This document shows, one piece after another, positions 19,901-53,749 of a stretch of 64,000 bases of DNA. The notes beneath the pieces were generated by a model. The model was given only the letters and a program-made list of their open reading frames with translations. It searched no databases and had not been told where the DNA came from. Source of the stretch: a virus. The number at the start of each line of letters is the position of its first letter. Positions within the stretch are counted from its first letter, which is position 1. The stretch lies in the IMG/VR virus record IMGVR_UViG_3300037963_005450, positions 1 through 64,000 of that record. The stretch is one strand, 5' to 3'. Both the position numbers and the translations under genes were made by a program.

Positions 19901-22900
19901 TCCATTTGATCTAAATCAGGCTTTATTAAATTTATTTCTGATTCAGGATTATAAAGAATTGCAAATTGATCTAAAATATCTTCTATTTGTTCCGCACCAA
20001 TCCAAGTTCCTTTAGCTTTTTGTTTTCTATTAGTATATACAGCTGCAATACTATATAAAATTTTATCTACATCCCTAGCAGGCATATAAATCTGCTGATA
20101 TTGAGTTTCTTCTTGCTTTGTAAATGGATTATATGCTTCATACTCAATAAAATCAATTGGTATTTGTGCTAAAGCAATATTTGCACCAGTCAATAATGTT
20201 TGTTTATCAGTAAATGCATTATTTTGTATAGTAGCATTTTTATATCTGCCCTCATCAATAGCTTTATATAAATCTGTTAATTCACTTCTATTTTTATTAC
20301 TAAATATGCTTTTAATCCATTCAACAAATCTGTTAAATAATGATTTAATTAAAGAATTAGTTTTAGTACTTTTTGGATTCTTTTTAAATTTTTGGAATTC
20401 ATCCGCCATATACTCTTCATAATATTCTTTCTTTAGTTGTTCTAAAGTCATTTCAGAATATATCTCTGATGAGTTTTTAAGTTTTTGTAACTCCTCATTA
20501 AATACTTTACCTTCTTTTCTTAGTTTTTCTCTAACCTCTTTGGCTGCCGCACTGTAATAAACTGCTTGTTCTTCAGGTGTAAGTAACATTCTAAATACAG
20601 CATGAAATGCTTCATGATATCTAGAAGGCATATTTTCTCCAGTAAATATTGTACCATTGATATCTATGCCTCCTGATATTTGCTTTAGGTTCATTACAAA
20701 TGCACCAACAGTATAACCATTTGTTATTATACGGTCCCTTAATGTATTAATATCCCCAATGGTTATAAACTCTGGTAAAACACTTTCAACCCAAGCTACA
20801 AACGTATCTAAGTTTTCAGGATTTTCTATCCTTTCATTTTTATCTATAACTTTTAATGCACCTTTTGCTAATTGACCATCTATTTTTTTCTTTTCTTTTT
20901 CAAGTTCAACTATTCTTTTATCTTTTCTGTTAAGTTTTATCCTTTCTTGATTCATTTTAACAGTATCTTCAGGATGCAATGCTTCAGCAGCTTCTCTATT
21001 TTCTTGCTTAATAACTTCTATTTCAGCTAAAACTTCTTTTCTTCTAGTTTTTAATTTATTATGTTTTTCTGCAGCTGTATTCATATTAACAGCTTTAGCA
21101 GCAAGTAATGGTTGATATCTTTTATCTAATACTTTAACTACTAAGGCTTCTCTACTAGATAATTTGTCTTGATTTTTATCTGCTATAATTTGTAATTGTT
21201 CATCACTAATATCTTCAAATCCTAATTGTCTGCTTTCATTAAAAGCTTCTTCACTAAGTTCATCAATTGTTTTTGTTTCATTTTCAATAACATCAGATTT
21301 TGTAACTTCATTTTCACTTTCATCAAGTTGAACTTGTGCACTATCTTCTTTAACTTTTATTGATTGAATTTCTGATGAATCTGTAACATCAACTAATAAT
21401 CCTACATCATATCTAATTCTAGAATCTATTTTTGAATTAAGCGTATTAAGAAATTCTTGAACATCTGTAATTTTTCTATCTACTGATTTACGGAAATTTT
21501 CTGTTGAAAAAATAGCACCGCCTGTAACTAATGTATCTAAAGCATTTTTTTGAGATTTTGATAATTCACTTTCTCTAGTAACAAGTTGACTAACAATTTC
21601 ACTAACAACCTCATTAAAGCTTGTAATATCAGGTTTCATTTCACTAATTCTATCCTGATCAATTTTTATAGTAAATGTTTTTTCTGAATTTCTTTGATTG
21701 TAAAATTCTAATTGAACATAACCATAAGAACTTACTTTCATACTTACAGTATATCCAGGTAAACTGTAGATGTAGAATTTTTTATTTAGTTCATTATTAT
21801 ATCCTTCAGGATAATTCTTAGTTTTTTTAGTATTATAAAACTCATCTTTTACTGTAACATCAGACCAAGGTTCACCTTCTTCTCTATTAACATTATTTTT
21901 AATAGTATCTGTAGCTCTTTCTTTAATATCTAGTAAAATATTATTTACTTCTTCTTCACTAAGTTTTTGAGATTGTAATTCAGCATAAGTATATACACCA
22001 TTTGGTAATTTAATTATAGCAACATATCTACCAGCGGCCATTGCATCTTTCATAAAATTACCCATGCCTACTTTAACATCATTATAAAGCTTGGTTAATT
22101 TTTTACCTTTTAAATTACTTATAGGATTTCCCGCAACTATATATACATTACCGTTATTATCTACTTTATATACAGTATCTGGATTATCTTTTTCTAACTG
22201 TTTTAAATCTTTTTGTGTATACTTAGTATCAACACGTTGATTGTCTAAAATTAAAACATTGCCATTATCATCAGCTGAATTATTAGTTAATTCAGACATT
22301 GGTGCTAACTCTGCTCCTTTAGGTACATATGCTAATCTACCAGGACTAGATTTTAAAATTACATCACCATCTAAATTAGACAACGGAATAGTTGTTTCTC
22401 CAGCTTCATATGCTTGTAATAATTGATTTAAAATATATTGTTGTTTAGCATAACCATCTTTAATATGCTTATCTAAATAAATAGGATTTCTATTATCAAA
22501 ATTATAAGAAGGTCTAAATATTTGTCTTATTTGAGCAGATGTCATATTAGGAACTTCAATTTCATTTCCAGAAGAATCTTTAAAAACTCTTTGTAATGCT
22601 GCTGGATAAAATGCTATAATGCCATCACTATTTAAATATTGCTCAGTATTATTTCCATCATTATCTATTAATTCAGAAAAAGCACCTGATTCTTTTAATA
22701 TATTTTCAATTTTTTGTTTTAATGCAGGATCTGTTGCTACTAATGCAATACTATATCTTTCACTACCAATTAATATTTGATTGTTTGGTTCATATTGTTT
22801 ACCATCTTTAGTTTTCTTAATACTAAATGGTTCTGGGTTATTTAAATTTTTATTTAATGTTATTTGAAATTCTAAACTATTTAACTCTTCATTAGTTAGA

Positions 22901-30900: not shown

Positions 30901-33900
30901 TTATACTCCCATTTTTCCTGTATAAAAAGGTCTAGCCCATTTTTTTAATTCTTTTCCTTTTTTTGCATAACCAATAATTTGACCTTGATTATTAAATATT
31001 GGTCTTCTACCACCACCACCAACATTAACATTGGCTCCTCCAGGATATCCTTGTGTTTGATTAAATCCTGATGGTCCATATCCGGTATACATCATATTAG
31101 GATGTGTATTATAATTATAGACATTAGTACCTGGATAACCTTGGTTATTTGTAGTTCCTTTAGTTGGTGCAGGTGCTCCTCTTAAATAATCATTAATCAT
31201 TGTATTAGTTACCTTGCCATCAGATCCTGCTATTTCTTGTAATTCTTTATAGGCATTTTTATATTGTTCTTGATAACTAGCTTTATCAGCTGTAGGTTTA
31301 TCACCAGTAAAACTTCTTTTACCTACTTGTCTTACAGTACCACCTTGACCAGGCATTACATGATAATATGGATTTTTGGCATTCATTGCTTGTGTGTTTG
31401 CCGCATTTGTATAGTAACTAGCTAATTTTTGAGCATAGTTCCAATCATCCATGTTTCTTTCATTCTGATAGTTTTGAAGTGTTCTATTAACGTCATCAAC
31501 ATATTTTACATTTCTGTTTCTTCTCTCTAGATTAGTTTGAGCATCTAATTTTGCTTGATCTCTAAAATATTGATTTTTAATGTTAACGTTATTAGTTTGA
31601 ACTCTTTGTAAAGCTTTAGCATTAGCATCCATTGCTTCACCAGCTGATTTACCAGTAAATGCTGCTAATCCTTGTCTACCTCCAAATGCTCCTGCTGCTT
31701 GATCACTTATAGCTTTTGCTGCATTATTTGCTGCAATTTGTGTTGTTGGATCATCTAAAACATAATCTAGTTCTACTCTTTCTACATCAGGTTGCCAAGG
31801 CATAAACATATCTCTCCTTGGATTTGTATTGAGAAGTATTTCATCTTGTAACCAAGGCTCCCATCTTGCTTCTGGTGCTTTTGCACAACATAAATAAGAT
31901 ACTGATCCATCACTACACGGACATCCTTTTTTAATTTCTGTTTTTGGTTCTGGTTCTTCTTTTGGTTCTGGACAAGGAGGACACTCTTCATCTTCTTTTA
32001 CTTGTGTTGTAGTTACATTTCCATCTGCATCTGTACAAGGACAATCCTTTAAACCAGGAGGTGGTGGAGGCAATTGATTAGCCAACAATACACTAGTTGC
32101 CGTGTGATCTCCTACAATACCATCTATTTTAGATGGATGATATGCATCTGAATCATAAACTTCTTGTTTTTCTCCTTGAGTACCTGCAAATTCACTACCT
32201 AAAAATTCCATTCCAGATTCATCTTCAGCATCAGCTTTTCTAAATCCTTGCATTCCTGCTTGGAATTGCATTATGTTATTTTTATCACTTGCCCATTTTA
32301 TTGCATCTTCTGGATTTAACCCAGTGTATTCTTTTAAATAATTTTGAACATCTTCATCTGCAAGAATATTTTTCCAATATCCAGAATCAGCTTTATTTTT
32401 TAAACCTTCTGCAACTTTTCTTCCTAAATCACTATCTTGATTTTTTAAATCTCTTAATGTTAAATTAATGGCATTACCCATTAATACATTTTTTTGAAAA
32501 TCTTCAGAACTTGTTCCTTTAACGCCTTTTGGATTATAATCTTTACTATCCACTATAAAATTATATCCAGCATATGCTTTATCTAAATATTCTACCCATT
32601 GTGCGTTTTCACTAGCAAATACTTTTTCAAGCTTTTTATAATCATTAAGCTCATCCCATAATTCTTTTTTCTCTTCAGGATTATCTGTATTTTCATATTC
32701 TTCTGTTAATTCATTTATAACTTTATTAACATCTTCTTTATTTTCAATTTTTTTATCTTCAATTTTTTCTTGATTTGTTATATCAGTAATGATTTGTGCA
32801 CCATTGTATTCATCAGGATCATATGCGTCATATTTACTAACAGACCCTTTATCATATGTAAAGAATTTATCTGATGTATTTTTTGGTTTAACTGAACTAA
32901 ATGTAACATTTCCATTATCATCTACTTCTCTTATAGTTTGTGTTCTAAAATCTCCTTTTTCTGTAAATCCTTCAGGATAATCTAACCCATGCCTTTCTGA
33001 TAAAAATTTGATTCTTTCTTGCCATACAGGATAGTTTGTTGACATACCAGTAGCTGGATCAATTGGATATGTATCACTGCTTGTATTCTTATAAATATCA
33101 GTAACTTCTTCCAATAATCTACCTGGATCAATTTCAGCTAAATTAATTCCTTTTACATCATTAATATCTAATTCAGCAGGTTTTCCATCTTTTGACCAAT
33201 ACTTAGATCTATCTTCAGAAGGTATTAAGCCTTGTGCAATACCAGCAGCTACTCTAGGATCAAAACCACTGTTTACATTAAACATTCTCATTAATTCCCC
33301 ATTAGCAGTACCCATTAAATTTGGATTAGCTTTTAATTCAGGAAATAAAGATTGTATTCCCATTTTTGAATTACCACTTCTCATATCACCCTCTAACTCA
33401 CCTTCTCCATCATATTTTGCAAATGTTCCTGCAGGTTGATTTGTTGGGCCAGCTTTACCATCTACAACATTTCCTATATTTGCTTCTAATACTTTTTGTA
33501 CCTCTGTAAAGTCATCTAACTTAATAGCATTATTAAGATTTGTTCTTTGTACATCTGATACTGCAGGATTAGAATATGTATCTGATTCAGGTTCTTCAAC
33601 TGTCTCTGTTGTTTTTTCAGTTACAACCGTTTCTTCTTGAGGTCCTGGTGTTGGTGCATTTGCTAAAATATTAGCAGTTAATGGATCTGCATCTGTATCT
33701 GTATCTGCAACATTCATTAAATTTTGTTGTAATACATTGCTAGGCATTTGTATTTCCTCACCTGAAACTGGATTAATTGCTGACATTAATGGAGCACCTT
33801 CAGTTTGAACAACTGGGTTTATATTTTCAATAACCGGTTGTTCTCTTGGATCTATCTTTTCTTGAATCTCCATTGTATTTTGTATATCTGCTAAATCTTC

Positions 33901-35229
33901 TTGACTAAATACATTATTTTGTATCATAGCAGCTATCTCATTATGAGTAGCTTGTCTTAAAGATGGATCACTCATCATCATTTGCCCTTGTTGGACTCCA
34001 AATAACATAGGTGGTTGATTACCAAACCTTTGAGCATTCCCATATTGATCTACAAATTTAATTTCATACATTCCATCACCTGCATTGTTTGGATCTATTT
34101 GTTGACCTCTTGCATCTACTACTATTGCAGTTAATCCCATTGATGCTGCTCCATCAATATATGGTTGTATACCATCTATTAAATCAATTCCGTCTGCTGA
34201 AGGTATAGGTTGTTCAGTAGCTATAGGACCAACCTTTTCTCCTCTAAGTTGAAATTCAGGTAGTTCATATCCATATTGAGCCATTGGCATTGGAGCAGAC
34301 ATAGCTCCTTGATCCATAGGAGGCATCATTTGTTGTGGAGGCATTCCTTGTTGTGACATAGGATCCATTCCAGGCATTCCTTGCATAGGAGGTGTTCCCA
34401 TTTGTTCAGGTTGCTGTGAAGGATCTTGACTAGTTGCAGCTTGTTGTTGCATTGCTTGTTGTTGCAACATTTGTTCAACCATTGCAACTTGCTCTCTTTG
34501 TTCTGGAGATAATTGTTCTAATACTCTATTTTGAGCTTGTTGCATACCCAACTCTTCTACTTTAGCAGTAAACTCTATTGGATCCATTCCTTGCTCTACT
34601 ATATAAGGATGAGCAGCTAAAGGAACACCATCTTCCCAATCTTTTTTAGCTTCTTGTCCAAATGCAAGTTTAGATAAACTTCTTTTATTTTTATCTAACA
34701 TTAATTCTGCACTACGCAAACCAATATTATCTGTATAAGGATCTACAATATTTTTGTAGTATTTATTTAATTCAAATTTTTTAGATATTTTGGCAGGTGT
34801 TTTTTTCTTTTTAGATTCAATGCCAAATTCAGCCATTTCTGACTTATTAAATTTCATTTTAGTTGTATCAGAAAATACAAAAGATTGTTCTGGTAAATAC
34901 ATTGGTACACCACCACTACCATGTCTTGGCCCCTCTATATCATAAAGACCAAACATTCCATCTCCATTTAGATCAGTTAAAACAGTTTCTCCACCTTCAG
35001 CTTCAATATTAGCTTCATCTCTTGGAACAGAAGATAAACTATATCTAACATCAGGAGTATCAGAATCATTAAGTTCTGTACCATAAGCAGCATTTGTAGG
35101 AACTGTAACAAGACCCCAATTAAATTGATCTCCGGTAGTTAAACTACCACCGTCTTTTTTTTGTTCTACTACTTGACCGTTTTCTAATGTAAAACCTTCA
35201 GGTAAATTATTTATTTTAATTTTAGCCAT
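30901..35229 (-). CDS. Virion cargo protein, cargo-protein-1-like (1442 aa)
   Basis: N-terminal NIEAEGGETV...GPRHGSGGV...FVFSD block, which I recall from crAss-like cargo proteins; Gln/Met/Pro-rich tract; Cys/Pro cluster; Ala/Gln-rich helical C-terminus. Confidence 0.65.
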   Translation of the reverse strand: MAKIKINNLPEGFTLENGQVVEQKKDGGSLTTGDQFNWGLVTVPTNAAYGTELNDSDTPDVRYSLSSVPRDEANIEAEGGETVLTDLNGDGMFGLYDIEGPRHGSGGVPMYLPEQSFVFSDTTKMKFNKSEMAEFGIESKKKKTPAKISKKFELNKYYKNIVDPYTDNIGLRSAELMLDKNKRSLSKLAFGQEAKKDWEDGVPLAAHPYIVEQGMDPIEFTAKVEELGMQQAQNRVLEQLSPEQREQVAMVEQMLQQQAMQQQAATSQDPSQQPEQMGTPPMQGMPGMDPMSQQGMPPQQMMPPMDQGAMSAPMPMAQYGYELPEFQLRGEKVGPIATEQPIPSADGIDLIDGIQPYIDGAASMGLTAIVVDARGQQIDPNNAGDGMYEIKFVDQYGNAQRFGNQPPMLFGVQQGQMMMSDPSLRQATHNEIAAMIQNNVFSQEDLADIQNTMEIQEKIDPREQPVIENINPVVQTEGAPLMSAINPVSGEEIQMPSNVLQQNLMNVADTDTDADPLTANILANAPTPGPQEETVVTEKTTETVEEPESDTYSNPAVSDVQRTNLNNAIKLDDFTEVQKVLEANIGNVVDGKAGPTNQPAGTFAKYDGEGELEGDMRSGNSKMGIQSLFPELKANPNLMGTANGELMRMFNVNSGFDPRVAAGIAQGLIPSEDRSKYWSKDGKPAELDINDVKGINLAEIDPGRLLEEVTDIYKNTSSDTYPIDPATGMSTNYPVWQERIKFLSERHGLDYPEGFTEKGDFRTQTIREVDDNGNVTFSSVKPKNTSDKFFTYDKGSVSKYDAYDPDEYNGAQIITDITNQEKIEDKKIENKEDVNKVINELTEEYENTDNPEEKKELWDELNDYKKLEKVFASENAQWVEYLDKAYAGYNFIVDSKDYNPKGVKGTSSEDFQKNVLMGNAINLTLRDLKNQDSDLGRKVAEGLKNKADSGYWKNILADEDVQNYLKEYTGLNPEDAIKWASDKNNIMQFQAGMQGFRKADAEDESGMEFLGSEFAGTQGEKQEVYDSDAYHPSKIDGIVGDHTATSVLLANQLPPPPPGLKDCPCTDADGNVTTTQVKEDEECPPCPEPKEEPEPKTEIKKGCPCSDGSVSYLCCAKAPEARWEPWLQDEILLNTNPRRDMFMPWQPDVERVELDYVLDDPTTQIAANNAAKAISDQAAGAFGGRQGLAAFTGKSAGEAMDANAKALQRVQTNNVNIKNQYFRDQAKLDAQTNLERRNRNVKYVDDVNRTLQNYQNERNMDDWNYAQKLASYYTNAANTQAMNAKNPYYHVMPGQGGTVRQVGKRSFTGDKPTADKASYQEQYKNAYKELQEIAGSDGKVTNTMINDYLRGAPAPTKGTTNNQGYPGTNVYNYNTHPNMMYTGYGPSGFNQTQGYPGGANVNVGGGGRRPIFNNQGQIIGYAKKGKELKKWARPFYTGKMGV

Positions 35230-35231
35230 AT

Positions 35232-38200
35232 CTATAAAATTTCAATGTCAGCACCTGCTGCTATTAGTTTTAATAATGTATCATATGATACTTCTGCTTC
35301 TCCCGTAGTTGGGGTAGGGGGTAGCATTTGTTGTAAATTATTAAATGGATCTCCTCCCATTTGAACTACTTTATTATCAATAAAATATCCGGTATTTTCA
35401 TCTTGATCTCCTCTATCAGTAGCTGCAACCATACCATATATTTTGTCAGCTTGTGTACGGCTTTTATCATTTTTTTCTTGAAGAAATTTACCGTACCTTA
35501 AAAAATCTGTAGCTGCATCTGCAACATTAACAACACCTTCAGAAAATTTACCAAACTTTTGTACACCCGGTCTATCAAGTTGACGGTTTGTCCAATTAGT
35601 TATTTTTTCACCAGCAGTATCACCATATCTTGAATCTACTACAGATGGATCTACAGATAAATCTTTTTCAGGATCATCTGCAGGAGGTTGATTTTGTGGA
35701 CCTACCATTGGAGCTTTTGGATATAAATCATTTACACCATCCCCATCATAATCAATTGTACTTATAGGTAAATCATCATCTTGAAGTGGAGGTATATTAT
35801 TTTTAGTATCACCTGTATTTTGATTACCCATATTAGCAACTTGATTAAATGTTGCACTTGGATCATTATCAACATTTAAATTAGTTTTATCAGCTTCTAA
35901 TAAATTAGCAGTAAGTTGACCAGGTTCTGTTGTTAAGTTGCTATAATCTGTATCATCATCATCAGTATTTGATAACATGCTATTATTAACAGGCCCAACA
36001 TTATTATTTGTTGGTCCAATCATTGAAGTTTCAGTTGCTGTTTCTTCTTCTTCTTGTTCACTTGTAGGGTTATAAAAAATACTATTAGGATTATCTGTAC
36101 TAAATACAGATTGATCACTCATCATTAATTGAGGTTCTGGTAAACTTGATTCAATTATTGATGGTGGCCTCATTGGTGCAATAGTATTTGGATTTCTTTT
36201 AGCATTTATAGTTATTTCATCTAAATCTTGATCTAAAGGTATATTATCTGTTCTTTTTAAATACTCTAATAATTTTTTATTTTCAGAAGCTGTACCAGTA
36301 TAGCCACTTCCTAAACCAGATGCTTTAAATAAATCAGCTCTTTCTGCTATTGAAGGTAAATTTCCTTCATAAAATTCATACAGGTTAGATGCGTTTTCAC
36401 CACCACCTTGTCTAAAAAGTTTTCCTGGATTTGCAAATACTTTTGGAGCTAATTTATGTCCTAACCATTGACTACCATATCCTGTTAACCATCCAGCTCC
36501 TGCACCTAATGCAGTTCTACCAAGGGTTTTTCCCCAAGCCTTTCCTACATTTCCTGTAGCAAATTCATCTGAACTAAAATAACCAGGTCTATTTGGATCT
36601 TCTCCAATACCTAATTCCATATTTGCACGGTTAGTATAATCTTTCCAATCAGTTGAACCAGCAGGGCATGTATTATCTGTACACATTTGTTGTGCAGTAT
36701 TTTTAACCTTTATGTTTTTACTTATACTAGAACTAGGATTTGTAAAACTTGAAAGCAAACCAAATGTTGCTCCTGTTCCTAACCCTATTTTTTCTGCATC
36801 AGTAAGTTTTGGTAAATTAAGATTAAATTCTCCTCTATATTGATATGATGGCAATCCTTGTTGCATAGCCAAATACTCTTCATGTGTTGCACCAGGATGT
36901 ACTGTACCATCAGGCATAGTGTGTGTTGGTGTTCCTTGATTAACAACTTGCATAAATGCTTGTAAAAATTCAGGCCCTACTTTTTTTAAATCTTTTTGCA
37001 TAGAATCATGTTCCATAAGATTTTCACCACCATGTGATAAAGAGCCTCCATGCTTTTTAAGAGTATTTTCATACATTGCTGTTTTATAAAAATCTGGATT
37101 AACTGTACCTGGTGCATAAGATGTACCATACCCATCTTTATCTATACCTAATGTTGTTCCTGTTGGTATCCCAGTTTCTTTTTCTGTTTGACCATAATAA
37201 TCAAAAAGCATTTTTGCTTGATCAGGATTATCTTTCATTCTTTGACCAAACTCTTGTAAATCTACTGCATCATGTTTTCTAATGTTTCTTCTATTGTCTC
37301 TTTTATTATCAGAAGCATACATTTTATACCTTCCTGTTTCTTCATCAAATGCTATACTAGAGTTATCTGTAAACCTTTGAAGTACATCATCTTTACTAAG
37401 AACTTCTCTATTTGTTTGATCAAAAACATAATTCTCTTTAAAGTCAGCTTCACTTCTTGGAGTTCCATCTGCATTTAGTCCTGCATCAATTGTATGTCTT
37501 TGGTAAGCTCCTTTATTATCTCTCCATTCTTTCTTTCGTGATTTATACCCCGGAACACTTTTTTGTTCTTTTGTGTCTCTTCTAAAAATACCATCAGAAT
37601 GACCATCACCATCTCTATCTTTTTTGCTAAACAAAGTTCGTCCAAAATCAGCTACAGATGTAACAAGATTAGCCAATGGGTTTTGATGCATCATTACATT
37701 ATTGTATAATGGTCTTGGCATTTTAGGCATATTTAAAACATCAGTTTCCCATTTTTGATCTGTACCATAATCTGGAAGATACAATGATCCTCCTCCTCTA
37801 CCTATTCCTCTTTGATGTGGTGGAATAAATGCTCCTGTACTGGCTTTAGGTAACATTGCTTCTAATTGAGCAATATCCTCTGAACTTGCTGGCTCAGGAT
37901 TTTCTTGCATCATTTGATCAGGTAATCCATATTCTTGTGGAATATTTGGATTCATTGGAGCCATTTGCTCTTGAGCTGCCATTTGATCAGGTGAAGCTTC
38001 TGGCATCATTGGTTGTTCCATCATACCCATTTCTTCTTCTGAAGCTTTGGCGTTTAATTGTTGAACAGCAACATCTATTGCTGCAATTACCTGATCTTCA
38101 GGCATTCCCAAACTTTCAAATGCAACTTTAATATCTTGTTCTGAAATTTGCATTTGCAATAATTCAGCAATTAATGCTTCCGGTTGTGCTCCACCTTCTA

Positions 38201-38291
38201 ATTGCTTTTTAATTTGTAATTGCAATTCCATTGGTGATGGCATATTTGCTTCACCTCCTTCTTGATATTTCATACGTTTTATTGTGCCCAT
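35232..38291 (-). CDS. Mosaic low-complexity virion protein with glycine-zipper segments and DUF3597-like domain (1019 aa)
   Basis: GLGTGATFGLL and LGAGAGWLTGYG hydrophobic segments; SIAERADL...GYTGTASENKKLLEYLK (DUF3597-like); DxDGDG loops; multiple GG motifs. Confidence 0.65.
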   Translation of the reverse strand: MGTIKRMKYQEGGEANMPSPMELQLQIKKQLEGGAQPEALIAELLQMQISEQDIKVAFESLGMPEDQVIAAIDVAVQQLNAKASEEEMGMMEQPMMPEASPDQMAAQEQMAPMNPNIPQEYGLPDQMMQENPEPASSEDIAQLEAMLPKASTGAFIPPHQRGIGRGGGSLYLPDYGTDQKWETDVLNMPKMPRPLYNNVMMHQNPLANLVTSVADFGRTLFSKKDRDGDGHSDGIFRRDTKEQKSVPGYKSRKKEWRDNKGAYQRHTIDAGLNADGTPRSEADFKENYVFDQTNREVLSKDDVLQRFTDNSSIAFDEETGRYKMYASDNKRDNRRNIRKHDAVDLQEFGQRMKDNPDQAKMLFDYYGQTEKETGIPTGTTLGIDKDGYGTSYAPGTVNPDFYKTAMYENTLKKHGGSLSHGGENLMEHDSMQKDLKKVGPEFLQAFMQVVNQGTPTHTMPDGTVHPGATHEEYLAMQQGLPSYQYRGEFNLNLPKLTDAEKIGLGTGATFGLLSSFTNPSSSISKNIKVKNTAQQMCTDNTCPAGSTDWKDYTNRANMELGIGEDPNRPGYFSSDEFATGNVGKAWGKTLGRTALGAGAGWLTGYGSQWLGHKLAPKVFANPGKLFRQGGGENASNLYEFYEGNLPSIAERADLFKASGLGSGYTGTASENKKLLEYLKRTDNIPLDQDLDEITINAKRNPNTIAPMRPPSIIESSLPEPQLMMSDQSVFSTDNPNSIFYNPTSEQEEEETATETSMIGPTNNNVGPVNNSMLSNTDDDDTDYSNLTTEPGQLTANLLEADKTNLNVDNDPSATFNQVANMGNQNTGDTKNNIPPLQDDDLPISTIDYDGDGVNDLYPKAPMVGPQNQPPADDPEKDLSVDPSVVDSRYGDTAGEKITNWTNRQLDRPGVQKFGKFSEGVVNVADAATDFLRYGKFLQEKNDKSRTQADKIYGMVAATDRGDQDENTGYFIDNKVVQMGGDPFNNLQQMLPPTPTTGEAEVSYDTLLKLIAAGADIEIL

Positions 38292-38301
38292 TATACTATA
38301 T

Positions 38302-38312
38302 TAATATACAAA
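38302..38312 (-). promoter_or_regulatory. Putative late promoter motif TTTGTATATTA (copy 3)
   Basis: Exact motif about 11 nt upstream of the ATG at 38291. Confidence 0.6.
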
Positions 38313-38336
38313 TATTTATGCAGATTGCCTAAATTA

Positions 38337-41300
38337 TTATTCATTACCTTTTTTAATTATGTGCGTCATTATATAATTTGGCACATGCATTCCTAATTTC
38401 TTAGCATCTTTATAATGCATTCTATTAAGTTTATCATAAACTTTTTCAGCAAAAGTTATATCATCAGTATTATCATATACACCGTTTATGTAATCTTTAT
38501 AAACTTGTAATTTATCTGTTTTTTTATTTTGCTTTTTGCTCATTTCTCCACCAACTTTCATGCTAGGAAATGCCAATGCTCCTCCAACATGTGGGTTACT
38601 AGCTTTATTAAATCCGCTCCATTGGTTAAAATCTAATTTTCCATTACTAGCTTGAGGTCTTGCACTAAAACTTCCTACATCATGATAACCAAATATAAGT
38701 TCTTCAGGTTTTAGTTTATATTTTTTCATTATTTCATTGGCTGTTTTTTTTATCATATTAATTGAACCAGCCATTTCTATTGCCTCTCTTTGACCATTAG
38801 GTCTTTCTATAAAGAAAATAACACCTGTTCCACCAAATCTACCATATGCATTTTTACCACCTCTAGAGTTACTGGTAGGAAATATTAAATGTGTTTCATT
38901 AGATTTTTTTCCACCTATGGTATAACTTTTACTAGTAGGTATTGATGATACTGTACTTTGAAATCCTTGAGCACTGGTTCTACCATCCCAATTTAAATCA
39001 GACCATTTGTATTGTCGTAATGGTGAAGCAATAGAAGCATAATCTTTTATTTCATTCTTTTTTAAATACTTTATATTAACTTGACCATTTTCTAATCTTT
39101 CATATACTGGAAAATAACCATCAGTTACAGTTGATCCTGGTGCTACAGGTTTTCCATTTAATTGGTCAGCAATCATTTTTTTAGCATAAGGATGCTTGTA
39201 TCCATCTGTTAAATCAGAGTCTAATAAAAAATGTGCAATTCCTTTAACATTTGAATATTGAGTGTTATCATCTGATTTACCATAGTTCTTTATAGGAACA
39301 TAATTAAAACCATTCTTAGCATCAAAAGAATTTTGATACATCATTAAATTACCTTTACTATCTTTAACAGTTCCTAAATCTTTATATATAGGTTTTATTA
39401 AATTTACTTTTTCTAGATTTGGTGATTCTTGAATGTTTGTTTCTCCTGATACTCCATCAACATATAAAGGTGTTTCTCCTTCTTTTGCATTTAAAGCTAA
39501 ACGTGCATTAAAAAGATCTACTTTATCCATTAATGGAGATTTTTCTTCTTCAAGATTAATATCAACATCAACTTTTTCTGTACTATAAACATCACCATCC
39601 ATATATTTTACATAACCTCTATGTAGATTATCTATTTTATCATCAATCCAATTCATAGCTATATCCAATGGAGAGTCTTTTTCTTTTGGTTTTGGCGGTT
39701 CTTTTTTATTAGGATCATATGCATAATGATGCTCCCCTAATGTTAAAGTATCATTTATATTAACTACTGTATTATCTCCGGGTGGCATAAATGATTCAAC
39801 GGGCATTGTAATTAAATTTACATCAGTAGTTGATGGTTCTGCTTTATATTCATACTGTGTAAAATCTATCTTAGGTAAAAGTTTTTCTGTTGTTTCTTCT
39901 TTTACAATAGGTTTTGGTTGTTCAGTAATTACCGGTTCTGTTGGTGTATTTACTGAAGTGATTTTATTTGGTTTATTTATAACAGGTTTTTGTTGTACAA
40001 CTTCTTGTACAACTTTTTCTTTTGTAGATGGTACTGTAACAGGCTGTTTTATTGGTGTTACAGGAGGTGTTACAATTGTTTGTTCAATTGGTTGTTCAAC
40101 TGGTGCTATTGTTTCTTCAACAACTGTTTGTTGAATTGGTGTTCCCACTCCTGGAATATTTATTGAAGTGCCTTTAGCAATCATCATTGGATTAACTCCG
40201 GGATTGGCATCTAATAATTCTTTTAATGTAATTCCAAATTTAGCAGCTATTCTAGGTCCTATTTCACCTTGTGAAACATATACACTATCTGTTTTAATTT
40301 CATCACCAGTTTGTTTTTTTGGAAGTTCAAATAATTGATCATAATATGTTTCACTAATACTATCATGTTTAGATTTTAAATATTCTTCTTCCCACTTTTC
40401 ATTATCTGCTAAAACTATTTTATGAACATAATCTTTAGTTTCTTCTGGTAATGATTCTAACCATTTCATATCATCACTATATATATCAACACCTTTTTCT
40501 TTTTGGTTATTTAAAAATTCAGACATATTACCTCTTCCCCAATTATAAGCAGCAAATGTTTTTGCTCTTCTTACTATAGGAGATTGATTGGGTTTATTTA
40601 TAAAACTGGCATTATATAAATGATCCATATACCATTTTTGTACTTTAGTAGCATCTTCAGGATCAAAAGGATCAACTTCTGTTTCTCCTGTTGCTTTTTT
40701 ATAATCTTTAATAACAGCGTCTCCTAATTGAGCTATTCCTTTATAACCTGCTGGAGAAACAGCTTCTGGATCAAATGTAGATTCTTTATACGCTTGTCTT
40801 ACCAACATTTCTTGAGGTATAGTATTTTCACGTTGTTCAAACAATTTTTGCATAAGTTTTAATTGTTCTAATTTTGTTGATGTTGCTGGTGCAGATGGTG
40901 CTGCTTTAGCTGCTATTGCAGACATTTTTTTTATAAAATTTCCATTTCCATTTTGAGCTTTTGGTAATGCCCCACCATATTGCATTCCTTCATTAGAACC
41001 TGAAGAACCTGCTGCTACTCCAAGCCCTCCTGTAGCTACAGCACCTGCAACAACAGGTGTCCTATTTATTAAATCAATTATACCTTTTTTTCCTTCTGTA
41101 GATGGTTGTAAAAAACTTAATATTCTATTTTGTTTACCAGCATCTGATTTCCAAAACTGCATTAATGTCTTTTCATCAATAGGATCTTGAAAGTTTTTAA
41201 TTATTCCATTCTGATATAATTCATTTCTAAGTTCTCTTAACATTGCAAGAGGTTCATGTTGATGTGTAGTTTGATTAATAAAAGTAGTTTCATCTGGATA

Positions 41301-44300
41301 TCTTTTTGTAAACTCTGATAATCTTTTATTTGCAAGTTCTTGATGTTCAACCATACTCTGCCATAAATCTTTTGTTTCTTTATCTCTAAAATAAGACTTA
41401 AAACCTTTATCACCCATTCCTTGCATTCTAGCTTCTTCAATATTTTTTGCTGCGGCATTAGCCTCATCAGTAAGATCTTTCAGCTGTACTTTATACCTAT
41501 CTTGTGGTAATAAAAGATTTCCTTTATTATTTATATTATAATCCTTTTGAGTATAAGCAAAATTTTCAGCGTCTTTAGTAGACAACCAATCATCTTCTTT
41601 TTTAAAGTTTCTAAAGAATTCAGAAGCTTCTTCATCAAATTTTGTCATAGGTTTATTTACAGTTTTAGGACTAATCCCCTCTATAGGTAAACCAGTTTTT
41701 GTACTTTTTACAGAATATGTTCTTTGAGGTAAATTCAACCCTCTTTTTTCCATATATCTTTGAATCAAATGACCAATTTCATGATCTCCAGTATGAGATG
41801 TTATATTTGGAACATAAGCAAATCTTTCAGTATGTTGACCAATACCTAAATTAACTAAATCATCTACACCGGATACATTTCCTACTGAACTTCCTGCATA
41901 TCCTCCTCTTCCTGGTACATTTGTATATTGAACTTCGTTTAAAAGATATTGTATAAAATCATCTGGATCTTTAACTCCTAAATTAATTAATTTTTCTTTA
42001 GCTGCAGGATTGTTAAAATTTTCTATTAAAGGCATTATATGATCATCAACATTTTCTAAAGGTTGTTCTAAATTTTTATAGGGTAGTGTAGTTTGATCTT
42101 TAAATTGTTCTCTTACTTTAGGATCTTTACTAGCTTTACCAGTATTAACTTTTATATTATGTTCAGATATTAATTCATTTTGTTTAGCTATTTGTTCATT
42201 TACTTCAGTAAGGCTTTGGTTATATTTTTCATTACCATAAAACGTAGATGGTTGTGTATCTACTTTTTGAGGCTTTTTTGGTATATAAGTACCAGGCCAA
42301 AATTCAGTATCAACTCCTGTATTATCTGGAATGTTTGCCCAATCTGTATCATCTGCTTGATTTAATGTTGTTCGTGTCTCAACTACTTCATCTGTTTCCT
42401 TTATAATATTAGGTTTTGTAGAACTTGTTTTTGATGATTTAACTGGTTTTACAATAATATCATTAAAGTGTCCTGTGTTATCTCTACCAATAACTTTAAG
42501 GTTTGGCATTCCAAGTAATTCTTTCTCACCTAAAAGCTTTTCTGTAGTCATGAAAAAAGGTTTCTCTTTAGTTCCAACATTAGTAGTATTTATTAAATCT
42601 TGTAAGTTTTGGTTTTCTTTAATAGGAACTTTAAAAAAATCTTCTCCCATGTTTTTTGCATACCTTTCAGGTATTACTATTCTTTGAGTACCTGCTGGAT
42701 TAAGTGGTGCACCATCTTTCCAAGCTCCTGTACTCCAAGATCTTGGAGAATCCCAAGTTACTTTAGAACCATATTCAGTAGGGAAGTTTTTTTGACTTCC
42801 ATAATAACCTTGTATTCTAGATATAGGTGTATTTATAGATTGATCTCCTAAGTTGTATTTAGCAACAATTTCATCTAGCTTTAATCTATCAGCACCTTTT
42901 ATATCAGCTGGACTATGTTGCCAAAGTCTTACAATTTCAGCTTCCTCATCAGTTAAATTAGCACCTTTTAAAGCATCATAGTTTTTAGAACCTTGATAAG
43001 CAGCACTAATATTTCCTTCATTTAATCCAGATTTCCATGCAATAGGTAACGGAGAGTTTCCAGTAGCAACTGCATTATATCCACTTTTAATGGTTGGAAT
43101 ATATTGTTTTGCTGCTGCATATCCACCAGCACCTATACCAAACAAATCTAATCCTATAGACCCTGCATTACCCCAAGTTGGATTATTAGCAAACTCTTGA
43201 ACATCTCCTGGTAAATGTGTAGCTCCGTGATAAGCACCATAAGCATCCATAAGACCCCCAACAGTTACATCCCCAACAACTTTAGTTCCCATTACTTCAC
43301 TAGCTGCAGGCATTACATAAGGTAATGCAGATGCAACCAATGGTAAAGCTGCAACAGTCATACCTGGTTTAACTATAGCATCAGTTATTTGTTGCCCATA
43401 ATCATCTAAGTAATCACCTCCTCTAACACCCTCTATTATAGCTTGTCTTATGAGAGGATTGCTTGATCTATTTGCTGTTGAGCCAAATGTAGTACTATAA
43501 GGATTATGATGATCCCATAATGTTTCTTTTTGATTGTCACTTATAGTCTCCCATGCAGGATACCTTTTTTTCATTTCCTCCTCATGCCTTAATCTCCATG
43601 AAGTTTCATCCCTTTGTCTTTGTGTTTCATCTGAAACAGTTTCTATTTCAAAATCAGGAAGATTACCTCCTATAAATATAGGTTCTAATTCACCTTCTGG
43701 TCCTGTAACATTTTCATCAAAGACATAATGTTTTAGTTGCCCTGCTTCATTTAATGCTCTAAATTCTTCCACCGTATAAGGTTTGCCAGTATTAGGATTT
43801 ATACCTTTATCAGCCATCCAAACAGGAGCAGCCTCTTGCAACTTTTTTTCATAAACATAATTCTCTCTGTCTTGAGCTGCTTGATCATTTTTATTTTTTT
43901 GATCCATAGCATAATTATAACGTAACCATTGAGAATTGCTATATGTTATAGGATTTCCACTTTTATCTAAAGGATTGGCTTGATCATCATAACTTGCAAC
44001 TTGAGCATCAAACTCTGCCTCCATTTCTGCAGGAGACTTATCAAATGAAAAGTTTTGTGTACCTGTTTCTACTCTAGTGGGTTCATTAGAATTTTCCCCT
44101 TTAAATTGAAATATTGGAAGAATATCCCCACCGTCTTTTTTAATGCCTTGATTATATTGCATATTATCTTGCACATAACCAGCATCACCTTGAAGCATAG
44201 CTTGTATTTGATTAAGTCTTTCTTTTTGAGATTGATTAAGACCGCTTCTAGCTTCTAAAGATTGTAAATCATTTTTTTCTCTATTTAACTCAACTATGTC

Positions 44301-45164
44301 TTTTTGTAAAAGCTTTTTATATTCTATTTGTTCTTGCTCTACTTGTTCTATAGTAGGTTGTGGTTCAATAATATCATTCGTATTTATTGTAAAATTGTTT
44401 TCTTCATTATTTGTTGGATAACCCAAATCATGAATCATACTTCTTACTACTATATTTTGAGGAGGTAATCCTTTTAATAATTCTTCAATATTATGTTCAG
44501 CAAAATATTCAGGATTATTTGTTTGTGCCCAAGATATATATTGTTGATATTCATCATCAGTCATAGAATGTCGTGGTAATTTTCTATGATAATTTTCTAT
44601 TGTTGGTGATTTAGCTCCTTCCCAATCTGATTCTCCCCAACTTTTATCTACTATTAAATTTGACCCTGTTTTAAATTTTTTAGAAATAGTTGCTTCACCA
44701 GGTTTAACTAGATCTTTATATTGTTCAAACCCTAAAAATTCAGGAGAATTCATCCATTCTGTACTATCAGTATAATCATCTACTACTGACCATCTTAATT
44801 CATAAGCGTCTTTAGCAGCATCTATTTCTTTATTAAGTGATTCAATATTTTTATTCTCTTTTCTTATTTTTTTATACTCTTTGTACCGTGGATCAAAAAT
44901 GCTATTTATTTCTCCCTTAGATTGATATGAGGGTAGTATTGGAGATTCATCTACATAGTCTGCATTAGGAAAATAATAATCTTTACCGGGATTCATTAAT
45001 GTTGGTGGTCCTACATTTGGTTGAGCCCATACAGGATATGGTACACCTTTCATTGTAATATCATTACCCATTATACGTGTATTTTGACCAGGATATTTCC
45101 ATTGACCTTGCTGATCTTTAACCAAATAATTTGGTCCTCCTTTTAACCCTATTCCTTTTCCCAT
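38337..45164 (-). CDS. Multidomain virion protein: lytic transglycosylase (SLT), LysM, zincin HExxH, putative ADP-ribosyltransferase (2275 aa)
   Basis: SLT motifs KESTFDPEAVSPAGYKGIAQL..AAYNWGRG..ETKDYV (about 40410-40830); LysM VSQGE..IAAKFGITLKELLDANP...INIP (about 40150-40285); HEIGH (41769-41783); R-S-E-like ART motifs (about 42445-42960). Confidence 0.85.
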   Translation of the reverse strand: MGKGIGLKGGPNYLVKDQQGQWKYPGQNTRIMGNDITMKGVPYPVWAQPNVGPPTLMNPGKDYYFPNADYVDESPILPSYQSKGEINSIFDPRYKEYKKIRKENKNIESLNKEIDAAKDAYELRWSVVDDYTDSTEWMNSPEFLGFEQYKDLVKPGEATISKKFKTGSNLIVDKSWGESDWEGAKSPTIENYHRKLPRHSMTDDEYQQYISWAQTNNPEYFAEHNIEELLKGLPPQNIVVRSMIHDLGYPTNNEENNFTINTNDIIEPQPTIEQVEQEQIEYKKLLQKDIVELNREKNDLQSLEARSGLNQSQKERLNQIQAMLQGDAGYVQDNMQYNQGIKKDGGDILPIFQFKGENSNEPTRVETGTQNFSFDKSPAEMEAEFDAQVASYDDQANPLDKSGNPITYSNSQWLRYNYAMDQKNKNDQAAQDRENYVYEKKLQEAAPVWMADKGINPNTGKPYTVEEFRALNEAGQLKHYVFDENVTGPEGELEPIFIGGNLPDFEIETVSDETQRQRDETSWRLRHEEEMKKRYPAWETISDNQKETLWDHHNPYSTTFGSTANRSSNPLIRQAIIEGVRGGDYLDDYGQQITDAIVKPGMTVAALPLVASALPYVMPAASEVMGTKVVGDVTVGGLMDAYGAYHGATHLPGDVQEFANNPTWGNAGSIGLDLFGIGAGGYAAAKQYIPTIKSGYNAVATGNSPLPIAWKSGLNEGNISAAYQGSKNYDALKGANLTDEEAEIVRLWQHSPADIKGADRLKLDEIVAKYNLGDQSINTPISRIQGYYGSQKNFPTEYGSKVTWDSPRSWSTGAWKDGAPLNPAGTQRIVIPERYAKNMGEDFFKVPIKENQNLQDLINTTNVGTKEKPFFMTTEKLLGEKELLGMPNLKVIGRDNTGHFNDIIVKPVKSSKTSSTKPNIIKETDEVVETRTTLNQADDTDWANIPDNTGVDTEFWPGTYIPKKPQKVDTQPSTFYGNEKYNQSLTEVNEQIAKQNELISEHNIKVNTGKASKDPKVREQFKDQTTLPYKNLEQPLENVDDHIMPLIENFNNPAAKEKLINLGVKDPDDFIQYLLNEVQYTNVPGRGGYAGSSVGNVSGVDDLVNLGIGQHTERFAYVPNITSHTGDHEIGHLIQRYMEKRGLNLPQRTYSVKSTKTGLPIEGISPKTVNKPMTKFDEEASEFFRNFKKEDDWLSTKDAENFAYTQKDYNINNKGNLLLPQDRYKVQLKDLTDEANAAAKNIEEARMQGMGDKGFKSYFRDKETKDLWQSMVEHQELANKRLSEFTKRYPDETTFINQTTHQHEPLAMLRELRNELYQNGIIKNFQDPIDEKTLMQFWKSDAGKQNRILSFLQPSTEGKKGIIDLINRTPVVAGAVATGGLGVAAGSSGSNEGMQYGGALPKAQNGNGNFIKKMSAIAAKAAPSAPATSTKLEQLKLMQKLFEQRENTIPQEMLVRQAYKESTFDPEAVSPAGYKGIAQLGDAVIKDYKKATGETEVDPFDPEDATKVQKWYMDHLYNASFINKPNQSPIVRRAKTFAAYNWGRGNMSEFLNNQKEKGVDIYSDDMKWLESLPEETKDYVHKIVLADNEKWEEEYLKSKHDSISETYYDQLFELPKKQTGDEIKTDSVYVSQGEIGPRIAAKFGITLKELLDANPGVNPMMIAKGTSINIPGVGTPIQQTVVEETIAPVEQPIEQTIVTPPVTPIKQPVTVPSTKEKVVQEVVQQKPVINKPNKITSVNTPTEPVITEQPKPIVKEETTEKLLPKIDFTQYEYKAEPSTTDVNLITMPVESFMPPGDNTVVNINDTLTLGEHHYAYDPNKKEPPKPKEKDSPLDIAMNWIDDKIDNLHRGYVKYMDGDVYSTEKVDVDINLEEEKSPLMDKVDLFNARLALNAKEGETPLYVDGVSGETNIQESPNLEKVNLIKPIYKDLGTVKDSKGNLMMYQNSFDAKNGFNYVPIKNYGKSDDNTQYSNVKGIAHFLLDSDLTDGYKHPYAKKMIADQLNGKPVAPGSTVTDGYFPVYERLENGQVNIKYLKKNEIKDYASIASPLRQYKWSDLNWDGRTSAQGFQSTVSSIPTSKSYTIGGKKSNETHLIFPTSNSRGGKNAYGRFGGTGVIFFIERPNGQREAIEMAGSINMIKKTANEIMKKYKLKPEELIFGYHDVGSFSARPQASNGKLDFNQWSGFNKASNPHVGGALAFPSMKVGGEMSKKQNKKTDKLQVYKDYINGVYDNTDDITFAEKVYDKLNRMHYKDAKKLGMHVPNYIMTHIIKKGNE

Positions 45165-52121: not shown

Positions 52122-53018
52122 TTATCTTGTTGGTCTTAGAACAGGTGTACTAGAAAACATATCATAATATTTATGATACATTGCATTTCTATTCATCCAC
52201 CATACACGTTGTAATTCTTTAAAGTCCGGGGTATTAACAAAACTTAAAGCATTATTTCTTGATGCTCTATATCTATTTTCTACCATTGCTAATTGATTTT
52301 GTACAGGTTCTCCTGCAAAAATCATATTTTCTAAAATTCTTTGTTTTAAGCCATATTCATAATATTCATTACAATAAGGATGATCTAACACAAGTAAATT
52401 ACCATCTGCATCTTCCATAGCACCTTGATAACTTATATAAACTTTACCGCTTTTAAAATTAGTAATTAACCAACCATCTCTTATTTCTGCAATATCAGGA
52501 GCTTGTTCTGTTATGTTAGGACATTCACATTGTTCAGAATTAACATCTTGTATTCTTAATTTTCTAAACATAGTAAAAGTTCTATACTCAGCACTTCCTA
52601 TTTTTTGTACAACTTGATAAGATGTATTTTTATCTTCACATGGTTGAATAACACAAACTTCATTGCATGTTGGATCTTCACACGGTCCTGTATATCCAGG
52701 ATCTGGAACATAAGGTACTGGATTAGTTGTATCAACATGTGTACCAGATGGCATTTTTTGTGAAATAGTATAATCACCACAAATAAATGCATAATTCATA
52801 TATGCAAAGTCTGCAGGTAATTTAACTTTATTATGCTCTACATTTAAAACAGTTTGTTTAGTTCTATGAATTTTTAACCCTAAATCATAATTTATTCTAG
52901 TAGCAACTTTAATTAATTGCTGCGGATCAATCATACCTTCTAATGCATATGTATTAAAATCAATAGATACATCTTCTAGTAATTGATCAAAAGTTCTATA
53001 TTTATGTGATACACTCAT
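52122..53018 (-). CDS. Tail tubular / ring protein (P22 gp4-like)
   Basis: VKLPADF and ITNFKSGKVYISYQG...DGNLLV motifs; immediately upstream of the muzzle gene. Confidence 0.7.
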   Translation of the reverse strand: MSVSHKYRTFDQLLEDVSIDFNTYALEGMIDPQQLIKVATRINYDLGLKIHRTKQTVLNVEHNKVKLPADFAYMNYAFICGDYTISQKMPSGTHVDTTNPVPYVPDPGYTGPCEDPTCNEVCVIQPCEDKNTSYQVVQKIGSAEYRTFTMFRKLRIQDVNSEQCECPNITEQAPDIAEIRDGWLITNFKSGKVYISYQGAMEDADGNLLVLDHPYCNEYYEYGLKQRILENMIFAGEPVQNQLAMVENRYRASRNNALSFVNTPDFKELQRVWWMNRNAMYHKYYDMFSSTPVLRPTR

Positions 53019-53029
53019 CTTATTTTAAT

Positions 53030-53353
53030 TTACCATTTTACTTTATGTGACCAATATCTTGCAGAAAGTTTTGATGGTTTTGAATCTTGAGCATTATGTC
53101 TTGCATAATACGCTTTCTTTCTAGCTTTATCTTTTTTACTTTTAGGATTTTTACCAGCACCTTTTACCCCTTGTTGACCAAACCTTATTAATTTAGTTTT
53201 ATCTCCAACTTTAGCAACAACAACATGTGATTTTTTAGGATGATTTGGTGTACGTTTAGGTTTATTATATCCAGAAACACCAGCTCTTGTTAACTTAGAA
53301 TCTTTCTTTTTCTTAGTAGATCCTCCTTTTTTATATGTTTCTATTTTTCTCAT
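53030..53353 (-). CDS. Small Lys/Arg-rich protein (107 aa)
   Basis: KSHVVVAK...LIRFGQQG...YYARH...SARYWSHKVKW, a motif set I recognise from phage basic proteins; N-terminal YKKGGS. Confidence 0.8.
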   Translation of the reverse strand: MRKIETYKKGGSTKKKKDSKLTRAGVSGYNKPKRTPNHPKKSHVVVAKVGDKTKLIRFGQQGVKGAGKNPKSKKDKARKKAYYARHNAQDSKPSKLSARYWSHKVKW

Positions 53354-53592
53354 CTTTTTTTTCCTTTATGCAATCCATGTTTTGCGTGTTGTTTTCCTTT
53401 TTTTGTAGCTGCTCTTTTTTTTGCATTTGCAGCTGCTAACTTTTTTTTACCTTTTTTAGTGCTTTTAAGTTTAGCAATAGTTTTAGCTGGAGCATAAACC
53501 TCTCCTGTTTCTGAAGATTTTTTACCGCTAGCAGTTCTCCATTTTTGCTTAGTCCATCTATCTAAACTTTTTTGTCTTTTAGTTTTAGCCAT
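53350..53592 (-). CDS. Small Lys-rich protein resembling the C-terminal half of DUF5872-containing proteins (80 aa)
   Basis: QKSLDRWTKQKWRT.SGK....GEVY.P...KKR....GKQH; ATGA overlap with the next gene. Confidence 0.75.
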   Translation of the reverse strand: MAKTKRQKSLDRWTKQKWRTASGKKSSETGEVYAPAKTIAKLKSTKKGKKKLAAANAKKRAATKKGKQHAKHGLHKGKKR

Positions 53593-53747: not shown

Positions 53748-53749
53748 AA

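Follow-up and report, generated by a model that had tools for sequence, protein, structure and literature searches.

In an uncultured marine crAss-like phage known from IMG/VR virus record IMGVR_UViG_3300037963_005450, three adjoining genes, P0001, P0002 and P0003, code for large proteins that consist of conserved end modules and a variable middle of exchangeable cassettes, with a conserved peptide, here called the tag, standing at the junctions. The tag is bipartite, reading [K/Q]-x-G-G-[S/E/D] and then L-P-x-[A/F/Y]-Q-x(1-2)-G, and related peptides recur in gp45, a cargo protein of the Bacteroides phage crAss001. New here are the conservation of the GG pair across the order Crassvirales in homologues of gp45, the fixed positions of tags beside the end modules, a probable fold link between P0003 and the portal-bound domain of gp45, and a gel fingerprint test of gp45. 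The source record is 115,963 bp long and is rated complete by CheckV; the window that was analysed is its first 64 kb (64,000 nucleotides).

The window has a G+C content of about 30% and nearly all of its large open reading frames (ORFs) are carried by the minus strand. Pfam matched the crAss-type tail ring proteins 1 and 2 (CrAss_Ring_1/2), after which come a 2315-aa gene of muzzle size, P0001, P0002, P0003, a conserved 1157-aa gene and a 5462-aa gene (Table 1). The order in crAss001 is rings, muzzle gp44, cargo gp45 and gp46, and RNA-polymerase proteins (PMC10172136). P0001-P0003 lie directly downstream of ring and muzzle genes, as crassvirus cargo genes do, and because this is the gene order of gp44-gp45-gp46 they stand in the place of the cargo (packaged and ejected) proteins; by this synteny and by the fold match described below they are probably carried in the particle and injected. 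No relative of P0002, or of the conserved N domain of P0003 (residues ~61-230), was found among the INPHARED phage records.

Form and frequency of the tag

The bipartite form was recognised because P0002 and its weak database matches had the tag, and nothing else, in common. Columns built from 113 distinct copies gave the fuller form as approximately [M/F]-x-[K/Q]-[Y/D]-G-G-[S/E/A] followed by L-P-[K]-[A/F/Y]-Q-x(1-2)-G, the conserved stretch being 13-17 residues long and kept on both sides. A first-pass annotation of the window had listed 14 instances of a recurrent motif, and after conversion of the residue numbers of the three translations all 14 were found correctly placed; each of those in P0001 (five), P0002 and P0003 is either bipartite or lies at a site where relatives have a tag.

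The motif was real, then, but its first definition was too loose. The loose pattern [QK]..G[EDSA] discriminates poorly, with 24 matches compared to 13.5 +/- 3.5 in shuffled sequences (~1.8x), whereas the specific cores lay well above shuffles: LP..Q.{1,2}G occurred 6 times in the three proteins (4,736 aa) compared to 0.15 times when shuffled (none of 1000 shuffles reached 6) and once in the other 32,014 aa of the genome, while [KQ].GG[EDSA] occurred 8 times compared to 1.0 when shuffled and 3 times in the rest of the genome. The density of plain GG was not enriched, enrichment being confined to GG within the tag context. A hidden Markov model (HMM) of the tag, built on 82 genomes or loci and used at a threshold of at least 6 bits, matched 137 times in real proteins and not at all in reversed or shuffled ones, and a DNA scan of all IMG/VR for Y-G-G-x-L-P-K-A-Q returned 64 matches, all 64 in frame in long ORFs, mostly on contigs of 40-126 kb.

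The tag keeps to the cargo position in related phages. Eighty related IMG/VR loci were fetched with the P0003 family alignment, and sorting by gene position covered about 50 phages, in which the tag was restricted to the three genes that follow the muzzle gene and precede the 1157-aa gene. Its LP-x-x-Q-x-G half was found there at 0.66, 0.44 and 0.15 per 1000 aa for the first, second and third gene, and ~211,000 aa of the relatives' muzzle, giant polymerase-type and 1157-aa-type proteins held no copy of it; in the cargo-position genes the GG half had 6 to 13 times the density that it had elsewhere.

Among the copies within the window the Leu, Pro and Gly codons differ from copy to copy; a signal for recombination at the DNA level was therefore rejected, and selection acts on the peptide and not on a DNA recombination site. 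Of the 113 distinct tags, 32 have Glu after their last Gly, and Glu is frequent there only among the copies of this window, so that the Glu ending is a local flavour and no conserved feature of the tag, and an analogy drawn earlier to the Glu-ending sites of T4 and phiKZ is not supported. A full-text literature search ('LPKAQ', crassvirus proteolysis) returned nothing relevant, and no published description of the peptide was found.

Tags at module junctions and at fixed positions

When P0002 was aligned with four close relatives (P0004-P0007), three large insertions or deletions (indels) were seen to break inside tags. P0006 and P0007 have an insert of ~130 aa between LPQAQFGVE and YGGDTDFLPQAKNGN where P0002 has the single LPKASTG; P0004 and P0005 have a module of ~100 aa inserted after RYGGSLPKFQKKGE where P0002 has the fused KKHGGS-LSHGGE; and at the FRQGGGE site of P0002 the relatives have FRQDGGGLPSFQSQGE, without the module that comes next. 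BLAST homology breakpoints (39-56 relatives) likewise peaked at tags, at residues 70, 1625 and 2204 of P0001 and 333 of P0003, and over all cargo proteins of the clade they were 3.3x enriched within 5 aa of a tag, although the majority of high-scoring segment pair (HSP) ends lie away from tags despite this enrichment. P0001 itself consists of a conserved N module (1-76), variable cassettes (among them SLT, 1444-1558, and a weak LysM match) and a conserved C module (2208-2275), and what it has in common with relatives is limited to ~75 residues at its start, ~70 at its end and the SLT region; residues 100-1390 are without counterpart in 39 relatives, and the HEIGH zincin-like block is seen in this phage only.

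For P0002, AlphaFold gave a model (mean predicted local distance difference test score, pLDDT, of 53) with five confident modules (20-90, 200-410, 640-682, 880-950 and 1003-1019). All six P0002 tags fall in stretches with pLDDT below 50, and four of the six lie within six residues of a confident module, but since 57% of the protein is of low confidence this placement in linkers is consistent with a junction role and is not strong evidence for it.

Tags also hold fixed positions from one family member to another. Members of the P0001 family have [VI]P[ML]AQxGxE after their conserved N module and x-K-x-GG-E ahead of their conserved C module. Every member of the P0002 family starts with the leader M-x-LNKKS[LV]KQxGG and has x-Q-x-GGE ~25-40 aa ahead of the invariant C-terminal ...LIAAGADIEIL. 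In the P0003 family the GG at residues 27/28 is near-invariant (35 relatives) and the tail KKGKEIKK...PFYTGKMG is conserved. The first-pass proposals that the motif marks module boundaries, and that these genes are strings of exchangeable cassettes with a common linker, are accordingly supported by the P0002 linkers, the P0001 and P0003 breakpoints, the conserved end modules and the indels of the relatives; the labels DUF3597-like and ART that had been given to individual modules found no Pfam match.

Two further observations concern these families. Ten P0002-family genes (L003, L004, L012, L015, L017, L037, L039, L045, L046 and L049) start at GTG, and calls that allow ATG only hide their KQxGG leader behind the false starts MGGQ or MIPQQ. 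A second motif, PTHTMPDGTVHPGATHEEY[LM]AMQ, found in P0002, recurs almost unchanged in the linker of P0003-family proteins from other phages; its abundance of His, Met and Asp may point to metal binding.

Conservation of the tag core in gp45 homologues

Six aromatic-GG peptides occur in the crAss001 protein gp45 (GG at 209, 263, 332, 373, 427 and 562), compared to none or one in the other large virion proteins of that phage. Cryo-electron microscopy (cryo-EM) resolved a gp45 helix (214-245) inside rings R1/R2 and a domain (425-552) on the portal, and the authors took gp45 to be one chain that spans the portal (Bayfield et al. 2023, PMC10172136). Set against this structure, the helix begins four residues past the GG tag at 209/210, while the portal-bound domain opens with the tag A425-F-G-G-W429 and ends ten residues ahead of the next. 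The Pfam model crAss_CARG1 (PF25725) also starts at gp45 residue 424, and its match to gp45 (424-555) reaches 222 bits.

Among 1.84 billion representatives searched, 3,934 gp45-like clusters were found, and the best 150 of these (39-94% identical to gp45, most of them 40-60%) were analysed. In these the GG at 209/210 was kept in 99 of 99 (consensus ANYSAYGGPI), that at 427/428 in 99-102 of 103 (consensus KWHAFGGxLxT), that at 373/374 in 36-37 of 38 and that at 562/563 in about 80 of 111. Because GG is near-invariant in gp45 homologues with a common core, the tag is taken as an order-wide feature: on the sequences compared, the core aromatic-G-G-x-[I/L] is order-wide, and the marine clade puts the Leu of LP in its last place. 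Aromatic-GG-x-[I/L] is common to gut and marine clades and the continuation is clade-specific, a difference after the GG that is as expected with a phage-encoded reader. In the Cellulophaga phages phi17:2 and phi4:1, GG-LPGKQYAGE is found in an 895-aa protein of the virion.

When modelled with AlphaFold (pLDDT 77, predicted template modelling score 0.72), the P0003 N domain aligned in VIA-align with the whole resolved domain of 7qog_M, which took rank 2 among 48,161 chains (Z 5.5, root mean square deviation 5.4, 100 of 126 residues, 21% identity). The modelled fold gives moderate support to P0003 being a C1-type, portal-docked cargo protein. Foldseek with the P0002 and P0003 N-domain models against the PDB found nothing at E<=0.001. 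As a separate observation, a small module IK-x-ENKGKFT...FAQNA (gp45 368-425, in the gene at 11988-14516 of crAss001) with a tag ahead of it occurs in crAss001 gp45 as well as in many P0002-family proteins of marine phages (hhalign E 5e-4); P0002 of this window is without it.

Joint, handle or cleavage site

The reading that we prefer, held tentatively and at somewhat less than an even chance, is that the tag stays uncut in the chain and is both a joint and a handle read by a virion component. An uncut tag would form a flexible joint together with a handle for a phage-encoded component, for which the portal, the tail-barrel rings and neighbouring cargo chains are candidates; diverse cassettes would be stored close to the portal, to be threaded out one module after another at infection, and a new cassette would be tolerated provided that the tag was brought along or kept. 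The gp45 chain in the virion is unbroken over 425-552 (PDB 7QOG), and as this resolved domain spans the tag, gp45 is intact across G428-W429. The reading is favoured, besides, by the synteny, by the enrichment of the tag and its restriction to three genes, by module swaps and fixed positions at tags, by their place in modelled linkers, by the codon differences between copies, by the order-wide GG core, by the fold match of P0003 and by the failure to match a prohead or GG-specific protease family in the genome.

Several points weigh against this reading. The reader is a postulate, and concordance of tag flavour within genomes was not significant (p=0.09, or 0.18 without this genome). The match of the P0003 fold to gp45 is modest, its Z of 5.5 being tied with generic helical matches; hhalign twice picked the same gp45 region for the P0003 N domain, at E 0.6-0.8, which amounts to no sequence support; and PF25725 matched neither the P0003 N domain nor P0002 at E<=10, nor any of P0001-P0003 at E<=0.01. 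A further point comes from peptide-mass fingerprinting, for which matrix-assisted laser desorption/ionisation (MALDI) peak lists of ten gel bands (1-10, >300 to ~58 kDa) from crAss001 virions were used (Shkoporov 2018, PMC6235969). The bands were assigned correctly, band 3 to gp47 and gp50, band 4 to gp49 and gp44, band 5 to the portal gp20 (11 peaks), bands 6-7 to gp26 and gp22, bands 7-8 to gp25 and band 9 to gp23. At ~91 kDa and equimolar with the 12-copy portal, gp45 was expected in this range, yet in bands 1-10 it gave at most 4 chance-level peaks (p>=0.15). This missing band may keep cleavage alive, for example by a cut just N-terminal of the tag, without proving it, and such a cut would also account for the resolved gp45 domain starting at 425. 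In the same gel two bands above 300 kDa fingerprinted as muzzle gp44 with the 27-kDa gp34 (PMC6235969), which suggests a complex resistant to sodium dodecyl sulphate (SDS).

Cleavage is the alternative that survives best, and we regard it as possible though on the whole unlikely. The tags would then be protease sites and the cargo genes polyproteins, cut at the junctions in head maturation or after ejection by the HExxH module of the giant RNA-polymerase protein, by an unrecognised phage protease or by a host protease. Every module is flanked by tags, and these lie in disordered linkers; the tag contains a conserved Gly-Gly as Gly-Gly-X sites do, and all P0002-family proteins carry an N-terminal leader of 10-14 aa that ends in GG. 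Gly-Gly is a hallmark of several viral polyprotein sites, including those of adenain, African swine fever virus (ASFV) pS273R and coronavirus PLpro. The failure to detect gp45 as a ~91-kDa species in the only gel-resolved public data, in which the portal was detected, also fits cleavage, as does the start of the cryo-EM domain model exactly at A425, two residues ahead of the GG. However, a simple rule of a cut following GG fails at the gp45 tag because G428-W429 is intact in the virion (427/428 of this homologue of the window proteins being the single tag tested), Bayfield et al. read gp45 as a single portal-spanning chain, and conserved residues on both sides of the tag exceed the needs of most sites.

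A protease to fit is also hard to find. The head protease that had been invoked in the first-pass annotation was sought among the prohead types Peptidase_S78, S77 and ClpP, none of which was matched at E<=1 in the complete 116-kb genome, a divergent protease being possible; C48 (PF02902) and C39 (PF03412) were not matched either, and C5, C57 and C63 were not searched. In favour of cleavage, YHEAFH in the giant protein at position +2 is conserved in 40 of 52 related loci, but neither this region nor the HEIGH region matched a Pfam peptidase family, the ESM Atlas returned nothing beyond viral clusters without a name and weak leads to LPD (polyvalent-protein) domains, and the giant polymerase-type protein with HEAFH is itself tag-free. 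A role of the P0001 HEIGH zincin as a general reader is likewise not supported, as this zincin-like block is not conserved in relatives.

It is improbable that the tags are passive Gly/Pro-rich joints without a reader, which would let cassettes recombine without harm to folding. Indels do break inside tags, and tags are predicted to be unstructured, but the codon differences make the copies poor substrates for homologous recombination, specific side chains (Lys/Gln, the aromatic, Leu-Pro and Gln) are kept over deep divergence, GG is near-invariant in about 100 of the best 150 of the 3,934 gp45-like clusters, and N-terminal tags exist where a joint is superfluous. Less probable again is that they are host-directed short linear motifs which, on the model of the Tol and TonB boxes that colicins carry in their disordered translocation domains, would bind a Bacteroidota envelope factor in the periplasm and help the cargo to cross the envelope. 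This would suit the position of tags in disordered parts of proteins with periplasm-acting modules (SLT, LysM), the avidity that several copies would give, and the variation in tag flavour between gut and marine clades, whose hosts differ too; yet the host partner is a postulate, one tag is ordered within the virion at the portal-bound domain, and tags occur only in C1-type genes, the RNA-polymerase proteins being among the other ejected proteins that lack them. That the motif arises by chance or from the composition of Gly/Gln/Lys-rich proteins is refuted, the ~1.8x excess of the loosest pattern notwithstanding, by counts of the specific cores that none of 1000 shuffles reached, by 137 real HMM matches against 0 in decoys and by DNA matches that are in frame in 64 of 64 cases.

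Cut or uncut, the tags might form an order-wide addressing code of Crassvirales, in which a phage-encoded reader would recognise any protein module with the tag, load it into the cargo zone and later release it in order; we regard this as a doubtful extension, and with like reserve we would take the signal to be aromatic-GG-x-[L/I], plus LP-x-A-Q-x-G in the marine clades. Among the phages of the human gut the Crassvirales rank first in abundance, they are common in the sea as well, and their protein cargo amounts to megadaltons. A junction peptide offers an experimental handle on how this cargo is selected, stored and ejected, and accounts for the free swapping of enzymatic cassettes among crAss-like phages; were the addressing code true, the tag would be a portable signal for bringing foreign proteins into crAss-like particles and delivering them to Bacteroidota cells.

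Positions of features and small tagged proteins

Table 1. Genes, tags and other features of the window, with residue numbers in the named protein
Feature	Residues	Position in window	Strand	Remark
P0001, 2275 aa		38337..45164	-	first gene past muzzle-like gene
P0002, 1019 aa		35232..38291	-	second gene in cargo position
P0003, 1442 aa		30901..35229	-	third gene in cargo position
LPSYQSKGE	P0001 77-85	44910..44936	-	directly past clade-conserved N module; relatives have [VI]P[ML]AQxGxE
KKDGGD-I-LPIFQFKGE	P0001 342-357	44094..44141	-	bipartite
MQYGGA-LPKAQNGNG	P0001 1394-1408	40941..40985	-	bipartite; 36 aa ahead of Pfam SLT match; top clade-HMM match, 18.6 bits
LPKKQTGDE	P0001 1614-1622	40299..40325	-	between SLT and weak LysM match
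FPSMKVGGE	P0001 2199-2207	38544..38570	-	x-K-x-GG-E tag ahead of conserved C module, in nearly all relatives
KYQEGGE	P0002 8-14	38250..38270	-	N-terminal; family-wide leader
LPKASTG	P0002 147-153	37833..37853	-	insert site in P0006/P0007
KKHGGS-LSHGGE	P0002 412-423	37023..37058	-	fused; insert site in P0004/P0005
LPSYQYRGE	P0002 480-488	36828..36854	-	adjoins end of helix 470-479
FRQGGGE	P0002 626-632	36396..36416	-	just ahead of module 635-682
VQMGGD	P0002 976-981	35349..35366	-	site of x-Q-x-GGE tag ahead of C-terminal helix
KKDGGS	P0003 24-29	35143..35160	-	pLDDT<50, between beta hairpin and conserved domain
PMAQYGYE-LPEFQLRGE	P0003 315-331	34237..34287	-	bipartite; main homology breakpoint (24 HSP ends at 333)
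YAKKGKE	P0003 1421-1427	30949..30969	-	half-tag variant within conserved tail
PTHTMPDGTVHPGATHEEY[LM]AMQ	P0002 455-478	36858-36929	-	second motif
CrAss_Ring_1/2 (Pfam)		52122-53018 and 53963-54634		ring proteins
YHEAFH	5462-aa protein 2247-2251	20602-20616	-	
ART-PolyVal	5462-aa protein ~3280-3408	17131-17517	-	27.6 bits, below cut-off of 31.2
DUF7831	5462-aa protein ~4993-5097			above cut-off
Four small basic ORFs		53030-53959	-	between ring genes
66-aa ORF		765-965	-	

The first-pass annotation had also placed the motif in two small proteins, and for both the support is weaker. The 66-aa ORF has just two IMG/VR relatives (52 aa), which keep MxxSGKEV and KYRKGG (KYR[KM]GG), and on this thin evidence it may be a tagged micro-protein. 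In the 107-aa protein the tag is an N-terminal extension that most homologues with the N-terminus read do not have; among these, the [FY]KKGG extension is found in the 107-aa protein and two others only, out of a family with more than 600 IMG/VR relatives (64-95% identical). Between the ring genes lie four small basic ORFs that belong to a widespread cassette: homologues of the 107-aa protein often adjoin homologues of the 69-aa and 80-aa ORFs, with ring genes nearby in 0 of 80 loci. The 107-aa protein was therefore rejected as a crAss-specific tagged protein, since it belongs to a small basic cassette that extends beyond crAss-like phages.

Comparison with known systems

The capsid-targeting sequence and gp21 of T4, and the gp175 inner-body processing of phiKZ, likewise involve short peptides on packaged, injected proteins, with an N-terminal leader that here is found on one family (P0002). 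Their sites, however, need Glu at P1 and a dedicated prohead protease, whereas here Glu is not conserved, no such protease was found, and the tags are internal and repeated. With the Gly-Gly-X systems (adenain, ASFV pS273R and the C39 double-glycine leaders) the cargo proteins have in common a conserved Gly-Gly in linkers of virion precursors; they differ in that the genome has no C48 or C39 protease and in that the tag visible in the solved relative is uncut after its GG.

Polyvalent proteins of phages and conjugative elements were reportedly described by Iyer, Burroughs, Anand, de Souza and Aravind in 2017. Like the proteins studied here they are giant and multi-modular, are delivered with DNA, show turnover of cassettes and have zincin-like and ART-like modules embedded in them. 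Pfam found no LPD or ART-PolyVal domain in P0001-P0003; such signatures sit instead in the neighbouring, tag-free 5462-aa protein, where the ART-PolyVal match falls below its cut-off. A DUF7831 match was also observed in that protein. We know of no common junction peptide described for polyvalent proteins.

The closest likeness is to crAss001 gp45 (PMC10172136; 7QOG; PF25725), the repeated peptide of which is not described in Bayfield et al. 2023 (PMC10172136). The marine proteins differ from gp45 in being two to three times larger and spread over three genes, in adding the LP-x-x-Q-x-G half and in having no sequence match to PF25725. They resemble it in their place after the muzzle gene, in a hydrophobic Gly-rich segment, in the modest whole-domain alignment of the P0003 N domain with its structure, and in the repeated aromatic-GG-x-[I/L] peptides that stand between small modules, one of which opens the portal-bound domain.

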